DNA of 64,000 nt, taken from Octopus vulgaris (taxonomy: Eukaryota). The notes beneath the pieces were generated by a model. The model was not told where the DNA came from. It did no database searches and saw nothing but the letters and a program-made list of their open reading frames with translations. Positions 3,130 through 58,761 of this stretch are shown here, piece by piece. The translations under genes and the position numbers were made by a program. The DNA is taken from NCBI GenBank assembly GCA_951406725.2, contig OX597822.1, positions 50,282,001 to 50,346,000 of the forward strand, read 5' to 3'. Each line of letters starts with the position of its first letter. Positions within the stretch are counted from its first letter, which is position 1.

Positions 3130-3305
3130 GAGGGGACTTGTCGATTTCATCAACGCCAATACTCAAATGATACTCAAATTATCGACACCGAAATGATGGA
3201 ATGCAAAGACAACCACGTCGGAATTTGAACGCAGAACCTAAAGGCAGGCAAATGTCGTAAAATATTTTCCCCAGTGTGCTAACGATTCTGCTAGTTCACC
3301 GCCGA
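3130..3305 (-). mobile_element. SINE family B, degenerate copy
   Basis: Reverse complement similar to 37785-38017 (ggaatttgaac..agaac, ctaacgattctgc..cgcc). Confidence 0.6.
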
Positions 3306-5699: not shown

Positions 5700-7620
5700 A
5701 TAAAAACACATATAGGAATGTGCAGGCTGCCGTTTTGCACATCAAAGACCCTGCCACATAAACACGAAACAGGTCAGAAACCAACTACCAAAAGAAAAAG
5801 GAATGGACCACGCACCACCTGCCCCAAAACAGAGGTACGCAGATGGGGTAAGTGCTACAAACCGCCAACATGTTATTGAAAGGGCAGCTGCTGAACAAGA
5901 ATCTTTTTTGTGCATGGCACAAAAGAATGTACAGCAGCTAACCTGGTTCCATCAAACTCAAACTCGCAGATGGGACTATCCACAATACACAAGACCGCCA
6001 CAGCAAATAGACCCAAGGTGGACACCGCCGGCAACAGCATACACCTCACCTCGATGCTCCTACTTAACATCAGAGGACTGCTAACACTCAGTAATTGGAT
6101 AAAAATCCCGTTCTTGAGAGACTTTGTTGCATGCAATCAAGCCTTATGCATAGCACTTACGGAAACACACCTGAAACCGGACATAGCAGATGCAGAATTA
6201 CACATACCACAGTATGATGTACTACGGACGGACAGAAAAGAAAGGAGTCATGGAGGAGTTGCTATGTACATCCGTGAGGACCTCACACACCAGGACCTTT
6301 TGTCATACTCAAACTCGGTGTGTGACACACTAATTGTACATATAAGGCAACTTGGTGTAGTTGTGTGTGCTACATATCGCCCTCCAGAAGCCGCAAGACA
6401 TGTAGGCAAGTTTGAATACTGCCTTATAAAAATAGAAGTTCTAGTCACATTAGAAGAACACATAAGTGTAATTCTTATGGGAGACTTCAATCAACCCAAT
6501 GTCAGATGGCCCGAGGGCCTTTCTCTCCCAGAAATGACACGATGTGAACGAGGACAGGCGAGGTCCCTCCTGAACCTCATCAACACTCTGTACATGGAGC
6601 AAGTAATACTCCAACCAACCAGGGCAGGTAACATACTGGATCTCTGCTTCACAAATAATATGGATCTCATCCATAATGTGAAAGTGACACCAACACTACT
6701 CTCGGATCACAACATGGTAGAGCTGACTATGTACGGGCCAAAGGAAAGCATGGACATGCAGCCTACAAGAAACTCTCAGAATCTTTCCAGCTTGAACTTC
6801 CATAAGGCAAACTGGAAATAAATTGAGAAAGAGATCATCAAACAAAACTGGCCTGAATGTCTATCCTCAACAGACATCGACATGAAACTTCAATAATTCA
6901 TGTCTGTAATGCAAGCCATATGCTACAAATGTGTCCCAGAGAGAAAGGCCACTGTACACAAGAGCAAAATCCCCAGAGAGAGGAAAATTCTAATGAGACG
7001 GCGTACAAAAGTTTCAAATCGCCTAAACAAACGAATTGAAAGCAGTGAAAAGTTCCGCCTGAAAATAAAGCTGTTGGAAATTGAAAAATGTCTGTAACTC
7101 TCCCATGAAAAACAAAGAAGCCGGGGCTATAGACAACACAAAATCTAACCCCAGAGCTTCCTACAGGTATGCCAAAGAAACAGCTACGGTGCACTGTAGG
7201 ATAGGGCCACTCCTTGAAGAGGATGGCACACTCACAGGAAATCCAATGAGGGTAAGTGAAATACTAAATGAGCAATTCAAGTGTATTTTCACTCCACCCC
7301 TAGGGAATTTTCAAGTCAGCAATCCAACTGACTTCTTTACCACTGTAGATATAAAATCAGAGGGAGCGATGATTGATTACATCAATATAAAGGAAGACGA
7401 TGTAATAAAGGCTATTGATGAAATGAAAACAAACTCAGCTAAGGATTCCCTTCTAAAAGTATGTAAGAGAGTCCTAGCAAGACCACTGTAGTTCCTCTTT
7501 CAGAGCTTCCTTGCAAGAGTCCTAGCAAGACCACTGTAGTTCCTCTTTCAGAGCTTCCTTGCAACTGGTAAACTCACAAGAAAACTGAAGGAAGGTAAAA
7601 TATGCGCCAAATGGCAATTG
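5700..7620 (+). mobile_element. CR1/L2-group non-LTR retrotransposon: APE endonuclease and ORF2 N-terminal part (pseudogenised)
   Basis: ORF 5910-6821 has APE motifs NIRGL, LTETHL, DR..GGVAMY, YRPP, GDFN, PTR..NILDL and SDH. Downstream frames give NEQFKCIFT with stops and frameshifts. Confidence 0.9.
7468..7563 (+). repeat. Perfect 48-bp tandem duplication inside the LINE
   Basis: agagtcctagcaagaccactgtagttcctctttcagagcttccttgca occurs twice. Confidence 0.9.
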
Positions 7621-28431: not shown

Positions 28432-29090
28432 GTACTACTACTAATAATAATAATAATGATAATCATTTCTATTTTATACCTGTGGCCTGTATTTAAGGGG
28501 AGGTTGTAAGTCGATTACATCGACCTCAGTGTTTCACCGGTACTTAATTTATCGACCCCGAAAGGATGAAAGGCAAAGTCGACCCCGTGGACATGTGAAC
28601 TCAGAACCTGAAGACAGACGAAACACCGCTAAAGAGTTTCCCCCAGTATGCTAACTATTCTGTCAGCTCGCCGACTTAATATTATAATAATAATCCTTTC
28701 CGGTTGAGGCACACGGCCTCAAAGTTGGGGAGAAGGGCATTAAGTTGATTACATCGACTCCAGTGCGTAATTGGTACTAATTTTATCGCCTCCAAAAGGA
28801 TGAAAGGCAGTTAAATTTGGTGGAATTTAAAATTAGAACGTAATGGCAGACGAAATACCTATTTCTTTACTACCCACAAGGAGCTAAACGCAGAGAAGAC
28901 AAACAAAGACATACAGACGGATTAAGTCGATTATATCGACCCCAATACGTAACTGGTACTTATTTAATCGACACCGAAAGGATGTAAGGCTAAGTCAACC
29001 TCTGCGGAAATAGAAGTTCGAACGTAACGGCAGACGAAATATCGCTAAGCTTTTTGCCTGGAGTAATAAAAATTCTGCCAGCTCGCTTAT
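28185..29090 (-). mobile_element. Head-to-tail cluster of about 4 SINE family B copies separated by (ACT)n/(AAT)n
   Basis: Recurrent gtcgattacatcgac..gaaaggatgaaaggc..agaacgtaa..agacgaaat units at about 28190, 28470, 28700 and 28860. Confidence 0.85.
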
Positions 29091-32603: not shown

Positions 32604-32609
<6 letters not shown>

Positions 32610-33178
32610 TTATAATTACGCGTATAATTATAATTAGGGTTCAGCAAAGATTTGTTTTACCACATACCGAAGTATAGAAATAGCAGCCAAACAACCTTAG
32701 CTAGTTCTTCTACTATAAGAAGAGACTCCCGGACAAACAAAATACTCGAAATAACCCACGCAGACAGAGAGGAAAAATAACGAAATTCACTCGGTTTCGG
32801 TACTGGACGTTGAATATGATCTGTCCGATACTGTTTTGAATTGGATAGGTATGTTCAATTTTTCCAGTGCTCCAAAATTTAATATTGTGGAATCCTGTGC
32901 TGAAGAGGAAAATCTTTGGGTGAAATATGATTTTTACATTCTTCATACCGATCTAATTCCGAAACGCGTCCACAGGTAATCAAATACCGAGTGAATTTCG
33001 TTATTTTTCCTCTCTGTCTGCGTGGGTTATTTTGAATATTTTGTTTTGTCGGGTAGTCTCTTTTTATAGTAGAAGAAATAGGTAAGGTTCTTTGGCTGCT
33101 ATTTCTAAACTTCGGTATGTGGTAAAGCAAACCCTTGCTGAACTCTAATTATAATTGTTCTCGTAATTATAAAATATT
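32604..33178 (+). mobile_element. Inverted-repeat HHR element, family H1 (PLE pLTR-like)
   Basis: Inverted arms of about 200 bp (32604-32809 and about 32967-33178) flank a spacer with a canonical hammerhead. Abuts (TA)n. Confidence 0.85.
32894..32976 (+). ncRNA. Type I hammerhead ribozyme, canonical core
   Basis: Stem I CCTGTG/CACAGG; CTGAAGA; stem II GGAA/TTCC with a 46-nt loop; GAAA; palindromic ACGCGT stem III; GTC cleavage after 32970. Confidence 0.9.
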
Positions 33179-33489
33179 GTTTAAGTTTACCAAAAAATGG
33201 TCCTTTTAAGAAAGGGATAAATAAAATAATTACTAAAACCATCATGAAATCTGATCAACTAGGCAGAAAAATTCATATGGAAAATATACTTTGTTTAGCA
33301 CGCTAACTAACTATACTATATAGCTTTTATTATATTGTAATATATGTAATGTACATTAATTTCCAAACTAAAAATATTGAAATTAAGTTTCCATCAAAAT
33401 CAGTTCAAGCACAAGACCTATGAAGTCTTACTTTCGAAAATATTTAAAAGTACAGGTTACACTATGTACGCATGATGCCCCGAGGTCTT

Positions 33490-36180: not shown

Positions 36181-37782
36181 TCAAATAATAATAATAATAA
36201 TGATGAATATGATGATGATGTTTTCGTATATTAGCACAGACTTCTTCCTCTCGGACATTACACATTATATTTCTTTGCAATCAATAGCTAACTGGTACCA
36301 GATGAAACAGGATGTAAATGAGGCTACAAACTAAAAGTCACCGCCTCTAAATATCTGTGCTTTAACAGGTATTAGTATTAATTGTAGTATTAGTTATCGT
36401 ATGAACAGAAGTAGTAAAAAACGGCAGTTTTAAATGTAGATATGATATTGAGAAAATCAGAACAGCAAAAAGAATAAAAATTTTGGTGTCAACGACACCG
36501 ATGATATTTGTGTAATTTTTTTCTTTCGATGATATTGATAATGTTGATGATGATCAGCAGGACGATGTTGATGATTACGATGGTGATGAAAATGATTAAT
36601 GTTGATCTTCATGTTTTAATAAATAAAAACCAAAATTAGAATAAAAATATACAACACAACACAAATATTTTCGAATTTTTTTTTTTCTGACGTTGAAGTC
36701 TGAATATATCACATTATTTGTATGTCATTTGTATGTCAGACTTTTTTTTTCATATCTTTCGATTCTACACAGAGGTTAGATTCAAATGCAAATATTAAAA
36801 TATCGATTGATTATAATTCTTATCAATATTATGTTCTTCCAAGTGTCCTTCAATATATTGTTTCTTTGCACGACTTTCATTTGAATATTCTTTGACTTAC
36901 TTCACTTTCATTCTGTATGACTCGAAGATCAATATGTTTTCATTTGGATTCAAATAATCAGACACCAAGCAGAAAAAATAACACAAACACACACATTCTC
37001 ACACACATTCTCTCTCAATCTCTTTCTTTCTCTTAAAAAATGTAAAAAACATTTAGATATATAAGTATTAGCTATTTGTCATCGATCTATCATTGATAAT
37101 TTGTTTTAAAATTTTGAAATATTCCATAGCTTTGGGGTAAAGTATCCAATAGTAGAGAATCTAATAACATATGTTCAAGACATTTTATGTCTGATTTATT
37201 TACTTTTACTCAGCTTTCTGAAATTGCTTCAATACTGTGAACTTCAATAAATCGTAGTAAAATAGTGGAAATATACAGCCAAAGGCTTTAAAAAAATGGT
37301 GGCTAATAAAATTGGATTCCACACCGTGATATTCAAATTAATCTTTAAAGAGTAACAAAAAATATTAAAGCGAACTACAAAATGTTTCGCGATATCTATT
37401 TCAAGTGTTTATTGAAATCATATTCGAGGACAACCATGCATTTCATCTTTGCCATGTCATTAGCATTCCCAAATGGAAACGTTAAAGTTGCTTTAATCAA
37501 CTATATACTTTCTTCAATCATTTTTATTGAGTCTGTATTTTAAATATTTACTAATCCTTTGCGTGTAATCATTGCAGCGTAGTTAATTCCTATACAAATC
37601 TAATATAGTTACCATCACATAATCATCATAAAAGTTGGCTCTTAAGGGGCATCATTTTAGAGCGTTGAAAAGAATGACTTAAAGTATTCCTTTGGTTCCT
37701 ATTAGATAAGTTTACACATCTAGCAATAATCGACTCTGAGACTTTAGATTTTAATTTTTCTCGTTCATATATAAAGCTCCAT

Positions 37783-38017
37783 AAGGCGGCGAGCTGGCAG
37801 CAACGTTAGCACGCCGGGCGAAATGCGTAGCCGTATTTCGTCTGTCGTTACGTTCCGAGTTCAAATTCCGCCGAGGTCGACTTTGCCTTTCATCCTTTCG
37901 GGGTCGATAAATTAAGAGCCAGTTACGCACTGGGGTCGATGTAATCGACTTATTCCCTTTGTCTGTCCGCGTTTTTGCCCTCTGTGTTTAGCCCCTTGTG
38001 TGTAGTAAAGAAATATG
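37783..38017 (+). mobile_element. tRNA-derived SINE family B, young full-length copy with a 13-bp TSD
   Basis: Head ggcggcgagctggcag..ttagc, B box GTTCAAATTCC, central gactttgcctttcatcctttcggggtcgataaa. TSD tataaagctccat at 37770-37782 and 38018-38030. Confidence 0.95.
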
Positions 38018-38242
38018 TATAAAGCTCCATTGTCAGTGTTTTACACAACTAAAGCACAATCCACAATTAGTTATCCTTCAATTACAAAATTATCGTTCAT
38101 GTTGCTTTAATCGACTATAGACTGTATCAATTTACATTTGATTTAACTATAGCGCTATGCCGTAGCTTCTTTTACATGATAATGCTGCTAAATTTGATGA
38201 AAGTGAACAGTCTACATGAATATTGTGGAATAAATAAAGTCT

Positions 38243-40203: not shown

Positions 40204-40266
<63 letters not shown>

Positions 40267-40430
40267 ATATGTATATATGTATATGTATGTATGTACATAT
40301 ATGTATATCATTTTAAATTAATAATAAAAGGGTAACATTTATCAATTAAATTAATTAATTAATCAATCAATTAATTAATAATTTTACCAAGTAGATCGTT
40401 AAGTTCAAATAACATTCATAGGTAAAATTA

Positions 40431-40956
40431 TACAAATATTTTATAATTTCAAAGATAATTATAATTAGGGTTCAGCTAATTGCTTCACCACATACCGAAT
40501 TTAGAAATAAAAGTTAAAAATTCCATGATAGAATACTGCAGTTTTCTGCGGTACTGCTGGTAGCATATACGTGTGTATAGGAGATGGATAGTGTATTCAC
40601 ATTCGGCTCTTTAATTTTGGAAGTGTGGGTTGGATATATTTTACATGATGTCGCTCGATCGTGTGCATATTTAACCCTAGCACTTCCAAATTTTATAATT
40701 GAAATTACTACACTGAAGAGAGAAGTAAGTAAATTTTTAAGCCCTTTAATCTCGAAACGCGTATGTAGTTAATCTTGGTCGTGTTGATCCACTGTTTTTC
40801 TCTTTGCCTACGTAAAAAGAATATTTTACTGTCATGAGATTCTTACAGTAGTAGAAAAGAAATTTTTAAGTCCTATTTCTAAATTTGGTATGTGGTGAAG
40901 TAATTAGCTGAAACCTAATTATTCTTTTGTTTATATGTTTATAATCATAAAATATT

Positions 40957-40960
<4 letters not shown>
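40431..40960 (+). mobile_element. Inverted-repeat HHR element, family H1, second diverged copy
   Basis: Arms tacaaatatttta..ttcagctaatt.cttcaccacatacc.aatttagaaata and their inverse are homologous to 32604-33178. Abuts (TA)n. Confidence 0.85.
40707..40769 (+). ncRNA. Type I hammerhead ribozyme, canonical core
   Basis: Stem I ACTACA/TGTAGT; CTGAAGA; stem II GAGA/TCTC with a 26-nt loop; GAAA; ACGCGT; GTA cleavage after 40763. Confidence 0.9.
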
Positions 40961-41013
<53 letters not shown>

Positions 41014-44609: not shown

Positions 44610-46445
44610 ATTATTATTATTATTACTATTACTTTTTTTTTCTTCTTTCAAATTTGCTTCCATTTCTTGCCGAGTGTCTTCCCAACTCCTAGGGCAAAGA
44701 AACTCATAGTATACATTGGTAGGCCATTTAACCAAACTCAATAGTTCGTTCATTTTTTTTATTTATTTTTTTTAAGTTAAATTAAAATACATGAGCAGCA
44801 ACAGTTCTCACATCGACAATGCTCTTCTCAATACGTGTGATGTACCAGTTAAGACAATCTTTTGCACTTCTTGCAGGGATGGTAAGTCAGGGATCATTCT
44901 CATATAATTTTCGGTTCCCTTCTTGATCATTCCTAGTGCTCCTACGATCACTGGTATTGTAACCGCCTTGAGATGCCACATTTTCTCAATTTCAATGAGT
45001 AGGTCTTTATATTTTCTGAGCTTGTCAAACTCTTTCGCTGAGATATTATGGTCACAGGGGATGCTCATGTCGATCAATAAGCAAACTTTATTGTTTTGGT
45101 CTTTCACAACAATATCTGGTTTATTGGCCTTGATGGTTCGGTCTGTATGTACTGGAAAGTCCCACAGAATGGTTACATTTTCTCCTTCAGTTACAGCCTC
45201 AGGGTGGTGATTATACCACTTGTCGGCAGTTTTGATATTGTAATGCCGACTTATTAGCCAGTGTAGATATTGGCCAACTCTGTCATGTCTTAATTTATAC
45301 TCCACTGGAGCTAAGACTTTACATCCAGAGATTAGGTGGTCCACTGTTTCAATCATGTCGTTGCAGAATCGGCATTTTGGGTCTGCTCCATTTTTCATCA
45401 CATTGGCCTGGTAGTTCCGGGTTAATAGCAGCCAGGATGAAACCTTTGCTCTCTGCTTTTAGCCCTGAGATCCGTAGCCACTGATGGGTTTGCTTCTGGT
45501 CAACATCAGCTTGTTTGCTGCGGGTCACATATTTGCCGTGCAGAGGTTTCTCCTCCCACCTATCAGCCAATTGCTCGTGCGCTTTTTTCGTTGCCATTAT
45601 TTTCACCTTCTTTGCAACAATAATTGCCGTACTTCCCTCGGGTTGTTCTGTTTGGGTATCCTGCACGAGATCAATAGCAAATTTTTTGCTTTCCTTTATA
45701 ATAGAATGAAGCTTCTTTCGTCTCTCGTGATTTTCCACGAGCTTTAGCATCCAGTCATTCGATATTTCGAGATATTTGGCCAGTCCAATTGTGGTTGTTT
45801 TGTAAGCTAGTTCAAATTGGATCAGGCCTCGACCTCCTTGGGCTCTGGGAAGGTAAAGGCGATCTACGTCTGCCTTTGGGTGGTGCATCCTATTACAACT
45901 CAGCAGCTTGCGTATTTTCCTATCTATATTCTTTACTTCACTCATATTCCAGTTCAACACATTGTAGCTATAAGTAACAACTGGAACTGCTAAGGAATTT
46001 ATAGCTAACACCTTGTTACGTGCATTTAGTTCAGATTTCAGGACTGCACCAACTCTCCTATAACATTCATTCCTGATCTTCTCTTTCATGCTTGCATGCT
46101 GAATACCAGAGCCTTCATTTATCCCTAAATATTTGTATGTTTGTTCTTGCTCAAGCTCTCTTATGACTGTGTCAACATCTAACACGACTGAATTTGTGGT
46201 CTTCACTTTCCCTTTCTGGAAAGTGGCCTTGGCACACTTCTCAAGTCCAAACTCCATCCCGATGTCATCGCTGAATGCTTTCACAGTGCACAATAGGCCT
46301 TCAAGTTCATTATTGTCTTTACCATAAAGTTTTAAGTCATCCATATAAAATAGATGGCTTATTTTTTTATTGGCAATTTTATACCCATACCCTGTTCTGT
46401 TTAATTCAATTGTAAGGGGTATTAGGGCTATGCAGAATATTAAAG
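44610..46445 (-). mobile_element. 5'-truncated Dong/R4-clade (RLE-type) non-LTR retrotransposon, young
   Basis: RT YMDDLKLY, KYLG, RLYLPRAQGGRGL; CRFC..ETVDHLISGC; RHD; PDIVV..ID..K..KY endonuclease. One frameshift near 45420. (TAA)n at both ends. Confidence 0.92.
44808..46445 (-). pseudogene. Partial RT-CCHC-RLE polyprotein of the Dong/R4 element
   Basis: ORFs 45349-46344 and 44808-45401 join across a small deletion (GFILAA..TRNYQANVMKNG). Confidence 0.88.
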
Positions 46446-46451
46446 GTGAAA

Positions 46452-46518
<67 letters not shown>

Positions 46519-56450: not shown

Positions 56451-57229
56451 AGCTCAGTGATTTTATTTGGTATACATCAAGTTGAGTATGTTTATTTTTT
56501 AGTATTTGAACTGTTAGATTATTTTCGCAATTTACCCAGTACAACCCTTACACAAGTAAATAGTATTTTCCTAAGCAATACATCCATTCATTTCGGTTAG
56601 TGACTTATTCATGAATATACCATGAATGGCAATGCTTTTCTTGTCACTTCAGCCAACTGACAAGCGCTGCGTGAAGAACTGTTCCGTTTTCCGACAAATG
56701 CAGTCAGCACAAAGGTCACACCTTAATTACATATAGGAACACCTTAATTTATATTGATAGAGGTGCTAATGATTCTAACAACCAACCACACAAACATACA
56801 GACATCGTCATTTGTCTATCAATAATATTGCAATCTACACTGTTCTCATATAGTTCACACGCTGTTTACTTCTAGGAACATTTTCGTAATTCATATTGAT
56901 AGCTGTGATATTTTCTTTACGATATACACTTTACTTATCTTTAACGGCCAAGGGGAAATAACCCATGTAAAATCTCTTATTTTTCTTTTCCACCAACCGG
57001 TCATTTGCACTGTCATAAAGGTCACTTTCTTAAAAAAAAATCAATATTAGATTCACCTATTTCGGTTAGTGACCTATTCACGAATATATCATGAATGACG
57101 ATAATCTATCATGTCACATCAGCCAACTGACAGCCGTTGCATGAATAACTGCTTTTAAACAAATGCACTGTTATCACATATGTCACACCATGTTTACATG
57201 TAGGAACACCTTAATGATGTTGCTCATGG

Positions 57230-58125
57230 GAAGTGCCACAGTCTTGCTTGCACAAGACTTTATACAAACTACTTCTGTGGTTCCAAAGGAGACAAGAGCT
57301 AGTGAAGTAAATACCAGCATAAAGTCGTCCTACCTATGGAGCTGTGTGCGAAAGCTAAGACTCACAACCAACATGACAGTGCAGCTCAGTGATAATGATG
57401 CAATCGGAACCTTTTCAAAGCAATTGTTGGATGTTGTTAATCATACGTCGGTTGGCCAGAAGGATGGCCAGGCAAGCTTGCCTTTTGGACATACGATATC
57501 TGATTTAAAAGAACTAATGTATAAGGTGATTCCTAACCCAAGGAATCAGTTTACAGACCACACCTGGCTGGAACCCTTGCCAGTTTCGCTCCAAAGAATG
57601 TGGCAGTTGATTATTTGAACTTTAAATTCTACAGTTCTATTGACGCTGTACTCAACATCGTTGAAGCTTTGAATTATCCAGTTGATTTCTTGAATCGTAT
57701 AACACCACCTGGTCTCCCACCTCACAACTTGCACCTATTCTACTACTTTGAAACATCGACTCACCAAAGCTTTGCAATGGTACACGACTTATCATAAAGA
57801 AGATGATGCCAAGAGTCTTAGAGACAAAAAATTTGCCTGGTAAAACAAGCGGTGAACCTGTATTCATTCCTAGAATCCCGCTTATTCCCTCGTATATGCC
57901 TTTCCAGTACAAGCGCCTGGAATTCCGGTTGCAAGCGAGCTTTGAAATGAGTATTAACAATGTTCAGGAGCGGTCCTTGGATGCGGTAGCTCTGAACTTT
58001 GGGGAACCGGTTTTCTACTATGGCCAACATTATGTGGTATGCTCAAGAGGAGGAAATCGTAATGATTTGTTTATTCATGCTCCACAAGGAAAGGACAAAG
58101 CTGTTGTTTATCAAGCCCTGCAAAC
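57230..58125 (+). pseudogene. Helitron PIF1-family helicase C-terminal pseudogene
   Basis: LAQDFIQT..IKSSYLW..LTTNM; YPVDFLN..PPGLPPHNL; LCNGTRL; VFIPRIPLIP..SINNVQ..GQHYVVCSR. Confidence 0.88.
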
Positions 58126-58761
58126 AATACGATTCACCAAATCAGATATTTATTATTTTACTGTAATATTAGTAAGTGTTGTAAATGTATTGATAATCTA
58201 CATGTTATTATATTCTTAAATCTATATGCAGATTCATTTGTATGTCTACTGTAAAACTAAATGTTAGTCTTTTCTACATTGATTGTGAATCTATTTCAAC
58301 ACTAGTGCCTCTGAGGGTAATATTCTTTGGGGACGCACAATAGCACTTTTCAAAGTGATTTAATTTGAATCATTATTATCTCATATCTGACTAGCCTGTT
58401 ATTACGAAACATGCTTCACGATTGTGGTGTACATACCTCATTAATATTTCCTCCTATGTCACTCATTAAAGCCCTTTTCGGGGCTACTTTATTTGAATTC
58501 TTACTATCGGGTAAGTAATTTCATGTTATTACGTAACTGACTTCAGAATTTGGCTAATTAATAATTTATTGGGATTTCCTAAAAACAAGGTCCTATGTAA
58601 GACAGTTCTGTATTCTCTATAAATGCACAAAAACCGTTTTAAGGGCTATATACATTGTATTGCTGTTATTAGATTAGTGAAACATTTATGAGAGCAGAAC
58701 TAAGGGATTAACCATGCTATTTCGGGATTTACCGGGTACGTCAGCTTGTATATATATATCA

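Follow-up and report, generated by a model that had tools for sequence, protein, structure and literature searches.

The window analysed here, a 64,000-nt stretch of the 2.8-Gb Octopus vulgaris genome (contig OX597822.1, positions 50,282,001 to 50,346,000), is rich in AT and microsatellites and includes two related repeat copies, named element 1 and element 2, each consisting of an inverted piece and a direct piece that carries a hammerhead ribozyme motif. Element 2 spans nucleotides 40306-40960. The first-pass annotation had started it at 40431, overlooking a 125-nt piece on the left, and had ended element 1 at 33178, whereas its right part extends to 33207. The parts of both elements are listed below; unit coordinates refer to the consensus repeat unit, and B and C designate the two zones where most copies have their outer 3' ends.

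40235..40305, no strand: TA-rich microsatellite forming the left flank of element 2, the likely target (from sequence)
40306..40430, minus: the "tail", unit ~240-363, with which the inverted copy reaches its end at site C (from segment mapping of locus L001, whose minus segment is unit 146-363)
40431..40524, minus: remainder of the inverted, 5'-truncated copy, which is the visible left arm, unit ~146-239
40522..40524, no strand: head-to-head junction, where 3 nt (TCC) can be assigned to either piece (from sequence and BLAST overlap)
40522..40960, plus: direct copy running across the unit seam, with the hammerhead, ending at site B (unit 238)
40707..40769, plus: type I hammerhead of element 2, whole (from sequence and covariation)
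40707-40712 and 40764-40769, plus: stem I, ACTACA and TGTAGT
40713-40719, plus: core, CTGAAGA
40720-40723 and 40750-40753, plus: stem II, GAGA and TCTC, with a 26-nt insert
40754-40763, plus: GAAACGCGTA, with the predicted cut after 40763
40754-40762, plus: GAAA and the palindromic stem III
40874..40960, plus: likely RT recognition and start site B, a function suggested by conservation and by the clustering of 3' ends
40961..41012, no strand: (TA)n right flank, the likely target (from sequence)
32604..32795, minus: inverted copy of element 1, 601-nt subfamily, unit 86-278, ending at site B
32799..33207, plus: direct copy of element 1 with the hammerhead, 96% like its consensus
32894-32976, plus: hammerhead of element 1, with CCTGTG/CACAGG, GGAA/TTCC and the triplet GTC

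The motifs, the helices, the core and the cut site after nucleotide 40763 are all present in the sequence where the first-pass annotation had placed them, and within the window the pattern CTGANGA...GAAACGCG has two matches only, which are elements 1 and 2. The characteristics of a type I hammerhead found here include the core CUGANGA, GAAA, A15.1-U16.1 and a NUH triplet, together with a helix I of about 6 bp, a helix II of about 4 bp and a short palindromic helix III; the canonical metazoan type I hammerhead is described in PMC4209133 with 6 bp in helix I, 4 bp in helix II and a helix III that is weak and palindromic. A T-T mismatch directly after stem I is conserved in 81 of 90 copies. The first pair of stem II is G-C in only 59 of the 90 copies (L159-L248), several subfamilies having an added base or a mismatch at the bottom of this stem, a feature that PMC4209133 also describes for the hammerheads of Penelope-like elements (PLEs). 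An Rfam scan of the window at E<=1 returned no hammerhead family match, its hits being microsatellite-driven miRNA noise; this is perhaps due to the 26-46 nt insert in stem II. When folded in isolation the element 2 hammerhead was no better than its shuffles (z=+1.11), and its helices have predicted probabilities of 0.12-0.30 as compared to 0.81-0.96 in element 1. Motifs resembling splice donors (GTAAGT, CAG/GTAATC) and acceptors lie close to or after the hammerhead, in the window at 40724-40730, 40840-40850 and 32972-32981; introns are frequent in PLE 5' regions. Hammerhead-like motifs with long stem II inserts were also seen outside the family at loci L069, L068, L082 and L064, the first of which has two in opposite orientation.

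A genome-wide first look gave 1,881 and 2,389 candidates for the two window elements, with 40 scored for each. A 20-mer common to both elements has 2,279 exact matches in the genome, a lower bound on the copy number of the family, versus none for the control, and the intact core pattern has 375 matches versus 3 for a reversed control. A sharp 5' boundary in the first-look matches was rejected as having been produced by the query. Beyond the usual 3' ends, longer copies return into the sequence located 5' of the hammerhead, and the unit is therefore closed, its head joined to its tail. The two consensus units, of 601 and 562 nt, can be aligned round the whole circle with 400 identities in 534 aligned positions; tandem periods in other subfamilies are 503-588 nt, for an overall range of 503-601 nt. 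Identity between the two units is 16/17 in the core, about 90% around end site B and 68-69% in the flanking regions, and, the core apart, the two families agree best in the region corresponding to nucleotides 40874-40960 (about 90% versus 68%). No ORF of 150 amino acids was found across either window element, a tblastn search of the window with a 781-aa PLE protein gave no match, and no ORF combining RT and GIY-YIG was found in the repeat family, which is therefore at most non-autonomous. Broken frames elsewhere in the window, at 44808-46452 (minus), 5895-6821 (plus) and 57145-58219 (plus), show motifs that, judged by eye, resemble those of a LINE RT, an AP-endonuclease and a Helitron helicase, of which they look like remnants. 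A dispersed SINE-like repeat is present in several copies in both orientations at window positions 3137, 19881, 26254, 28507-28991 and 37770-38020. At locus L036 (1207-1992), the summed contig depth in run X15 is ~100-fold higher over the B and C regions than over the hammerhead, which, depth being a crude measure, suggests that most relatives are short 3' pieces that do not include the ribozyme; two runs guessed to be RNA had no coverage over the hammerhead at this locus.

That the helices differ and stay paired, which had been noticed in the two window copies, holds across many subfamilies. An alignment of 77 copies (A1) was built from rows picked for having the core motif along with a family marker further downstream, the stems playing no part in the choice, after removal of one spurious row, L117. 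In this alignment 95.3% of the stem cells are paired as compared to 17-52% in slid registers, and two-sided changes occur in all six pairs of stem I and in three of the four of stem II; depending on the pair, stem I is intact in 77-88 of 90 copies. Since the kinship of the copies inflates raw covariation, a tree-aware test was used, a G-test with APC in which substitutions were shuffled along the tree; it was purpose-written and should not be equated with R-scape. When the structure was given, six of 12 pairs reached E<0.05 among 76 copies, five of them in stem I and one in stem II. The second set comprised 78 largely new copies with a tree from the downstream sequence only, 12 of 90 rows having been excluded because they did not include the family marker; 4 of 6 stem I pairs passed with the structure given, two stem I pairs ranked first and third among 14,535 pairs, and joint changes amounted to 16 versus 4.9 expected. 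The significant covariation anticipated by the first-pass annotation is thus found by the tree-aware test in four to five of the six stem I pairs when the structure is given, and in no pair in the unguided all-pairs tests of both sets. Covariation of long-range helices between the two consensus units was not significant (9/14, p=0.14). Because the helices covary across many subfamilies, the hammerhead fold is likely to be under selection in the source lineages, with few independent events behind this indication. The earlier view that selection maintained the ribozyme can be kept at this level and does not extend to the copy in the window: element 2 is, judging by its sequence, a decayed passenger copy, its direct piece showing 88% identity with the family consensus, and selection therefore need not act on it.

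The inverted arms, which had been regarded as a conserved design, are absent in 52 of 96 insertions and variable in length. One locus, L101, did not map. Mapping of 120 loci rendered 96 unique insertions, 52 of them a single piece, 40 head-to-head pairs and 4 more complex; none was a two-piece tail-to-tail insertion, and a second set of 83 mapped loci included 19 head-to-head and 0 tail-to-tail arrangements. The arms are from <50 to >300 nt long and their inner junctions are scattered. On the other hand, 114 of 138 outer 3' ends belong to zone B or zone C, which are separated by 110-125 nt, and (TA)3 follows 99 of the 138, a raw count with no background rate for comparison. Head-to-head pairs combine one B end with one C end in 30 of 33 classifiable cases (half expected, p=7e-7), so that an extra tail of ~110-125 nt is found on one end and the other end has none. 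Element 2 fits this rule, as its inverted piece ends at C and its direct piece at B. In the second set the B+C combination was found in 5 of 6 pairs under preset limits (p=0.10), and post hoc in 9 of 10 when four ends located 1-2 nt past the limit, in the TA repeat, were counted as B. In 33 of 36 cases the arm was nearer to its own direct piece than the median of the other copies; element 2 is an exception, its arm differing from its direct piece by 16% with no variant in common. LINE-1 twin priming yields 5' inversions, and it is resembled by 9 of 10 non-B+C pairs, in which the inverted piece ends close to where the direct piece begins; an end of one piece lies within 50 nt of the other's start in these 9 pairs, as compared to 6 of 30 B+C pairs. 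The family differs from twin priming in that 30 of 40 pairs use two fixed start sites and in that sequence found in the direct piece is repeated in the inverted one. The arms are therefore by-products of insertion and not a fixed architecture, and they are likely the scars left where a PLE-type enzyme copied RNA into a TA microsatellite on both strands. A literature search by title and start of abstract found no description of the family or of the paired B+C rule; supplements may hold a description of either, and Repbase or Dfam entries one of the family.

Autonomous PLEs are present in the same genome. An intact one (L121:430-5672, G000:C16) has a 781-aa frame with RT and GIY-YIG, an upstream 359-aa open frame, 456-nt direct terminal repeats and a minimal hammerhead with a U3-A8 core variant, and ends in (TA)n; the 781-aa frame has many near-identical copies in the genome. 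A second abundant PLE-like family (L249-L278; 16,469 first-look candidates) has frames of up to about 730 aa and a long AT-rich 3' region. A search for a helper among these two families (30 loci each) found no recurrent DNA similarity to the unit in their 3' regions, and the 30 GIY-YIG loci, 8 longer stretches and 30 loci of the second family showed only scattered neighbouring repeat insertions.

The presence of head-to-head pairs, a tail on one end, two 3' zones, TA flanks and PLEs in the same genome leads us to regard the family, with considerable confidence, as a non-autonomous element mobilised by a PLE. Comparable features have been described in PLEs: head-to-head inverted copies with a tail on one end only (PMC3846280; PMC8557442), and, for the anole PLE protein, a predicted dimer, extension of both target strands and two internal start sites bounding the tail (PMC11167929). 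As a whole, element 2 can probably be considered a decayed copy of a dispersed, non-coding hammerhead repeat of 500-600 nt, which likely spread by way of a ribozyme-cut, and likely circular, RNA that the RT/endonuclease of a PLE would copy into its TA target, leaving the two arms.

The nature of the template is where the closest alternative arises. Of 93 segments extending as far as the cut site, just 2 have ends within 6 nt of it, and therefore the RT template is intact there, either uncut or re-ligated. An uncut linear transcript of a partial-tandem copy could thus serve as template for the same PLE-mobilised non-autonomous element, the hammerhead being retained as a selfish passenger or because it trims read-through RNA, and insertion proceeding without it. 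The lengths of the segments agree with such a template, since none reaches two units, the longest being 917 nt. So do experiments with PAc, the anole PLE, whose hammerhead mutants still inserted in vitro, where cleavage was dispensable and unprocessed RNA was the main substrate, as reported in PMC11167929. However, the 5' ends are scattered round the unit with no fixed start, and upstream and downstream laps are nearly alike, with 4 positions showing 3-4 same-direction changes among 286 covered at least 5 times, whereas a fixed linear master should let the laps diverge. The unit is moreover predicted to be a strongly self-paired circle, the circular folds of the two consensus units having z=-8.9 and -11.1 (25 shuffles each) with 67-69% of the nucleotides paired. 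The uncut template seems to us unlikely, while deserving serious attention; the scattered 5' ends and the few recurrent lap differences favour a circle, a choice that DNA alone cannot decide. There are 26 segments longer than one unit by over 30 nt, and two span two cut sites. Two whole hammerheads in direct tandem, an arrangement that could release a monomer, were found in 2 of 90 intact-core loci (L176 and L231), and no higher multimers were seen among the 90. We lean towards cleavage and circle formation as the source of the template. The proposal of the first-pass annotation that cleavage is needed for mobility is at most plausible, and in one form only, that of a step in making the template.

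According to another interpretation the copies are 5'-truncated ends, or solo pseudo-LTRs, of a further autonomous PLE. Every footprint is PLE-like, and truncated PLEs with single or opposite-strand hammerheads are known from PMC4209133. Furthermore, PLE fragments adjoin or lie near 5 of about 210 family loci (L039, L167, L171, L192 and L248), and at L192 a repeat copy is fused head to head with a PLE endonuclease piece. However, these fragments come from different PLE families in mixed positions and orientations, and the sequence 5' of the hammerhead returns into the unit and not into an ORF, which makes this interpretation improbable. These contacts may be chimeras made by template switching, in which case they would point to the helper, or the result of common TA hot spots. 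A MITE or fold-back DNA transposon that acquired its hammerhead by chance, suggested by the resemblance of both window copies to long hairpins in TA repeats, has next to no likelihood and is refuted by the lack of fixed terminal inverted repeats, since the arms are missing or of very unequal length, their inner ends are scattered, and the two outer ends are usually different.

Under the circular-template reading, transcription would start from the rare two-hammerhead copies, and the two ribozymes, probably pairing via an ACGCGU palindrome, would excise a monomer that is then ligated into a self-paired circle. A PLE protein acting in trans, probably as a dimer, would nick both (TA)n strands, priming one cDNA at B and a second one at C, which lies 110-125 nt downstream. 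The cDNAs would halt at random points, to be joined head to head by microhomology or with one of them lost. It is conceivable, and we put it forward tentatively, that a PLE dimer reverse-transcribes the circular retrozyme RNA with its subunits priming at B and C on opposite target strands.

As they are described by Cervera and de la Pena (2020, PMC7229834) and in the preprint by Li et al. (2026, 10.64898/2026.07.22.740005), metazoan non-LTR retrozymes share with the family a non-coding unit of low GC, a canonical type I hammerhead (helices I and II of 6 and 4 bp, helix III weak and palindromic), a highly self-paired circular fold, which for the family is a prediction, and coexisting autonomous PLEs. 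The family differs in its unit of 503-601 nt, as opposed to about 170-400 nt (repeats 150-450), in its long stem II insert, head-to-head inversions and one-sided tail, and in having at most two hammerheads at a locus where retrozymes form tandem arrays; the word "inverted" is absent from the main text of PMC7229834. Retrozymes are expressed as circular RNA, whereas the family is known here from DNA. We therefore do not class it as a standard non-LTR retrozyme, since the unit is too long, no arrays were seen and it is known as DNA alone. EN+ PLEs and their pseudo-LTRs, as presented in PMC3846280, PMC8557442, PMC4209133 and PMC11167929, have in common with the family partial tandem and head-to-head inverted 5'-truncated copies, a tail on one end, a microsatellite target and a hammerhead near the 3' end. 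Their tail is of 30-40 nt and not 110-125 nt, and their hammerhead is minimal where that of the family is canonical; the family has no ORF, and for this reason we do not class it as a PLE proper. We regard it as a non-autonomous, retrozyme-like element whose insertions bear the footprint of a PLE.

The hammerhead, its covariation and the inverted arms are features already known. PLEs have been called "a strong candidate" for mobilising retrozymes in PMC7229834, and the preprint 10.64898/2026.07.22.740005 adds pLTR similarity to this argument. Arguments about what mobilises animal retrozymes are still based on co-occurrence and phylogeny, and the family presents a mechanistic PLE footprint on a retrozyme-like unit. 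As the element is short, both ends of an insertion can be read together, showing that ends with and without the tail are paired, and this pairing can be put as a sharp prediction to the in vitro PLE system that already exists. If the proposed reading is correct, thousands of insertions in this genome would be direct genomic footprints of animal retrozymes moved by PLE machinery, and the PLE "tail" would be the mark of two priming events with fixed, separate roles.
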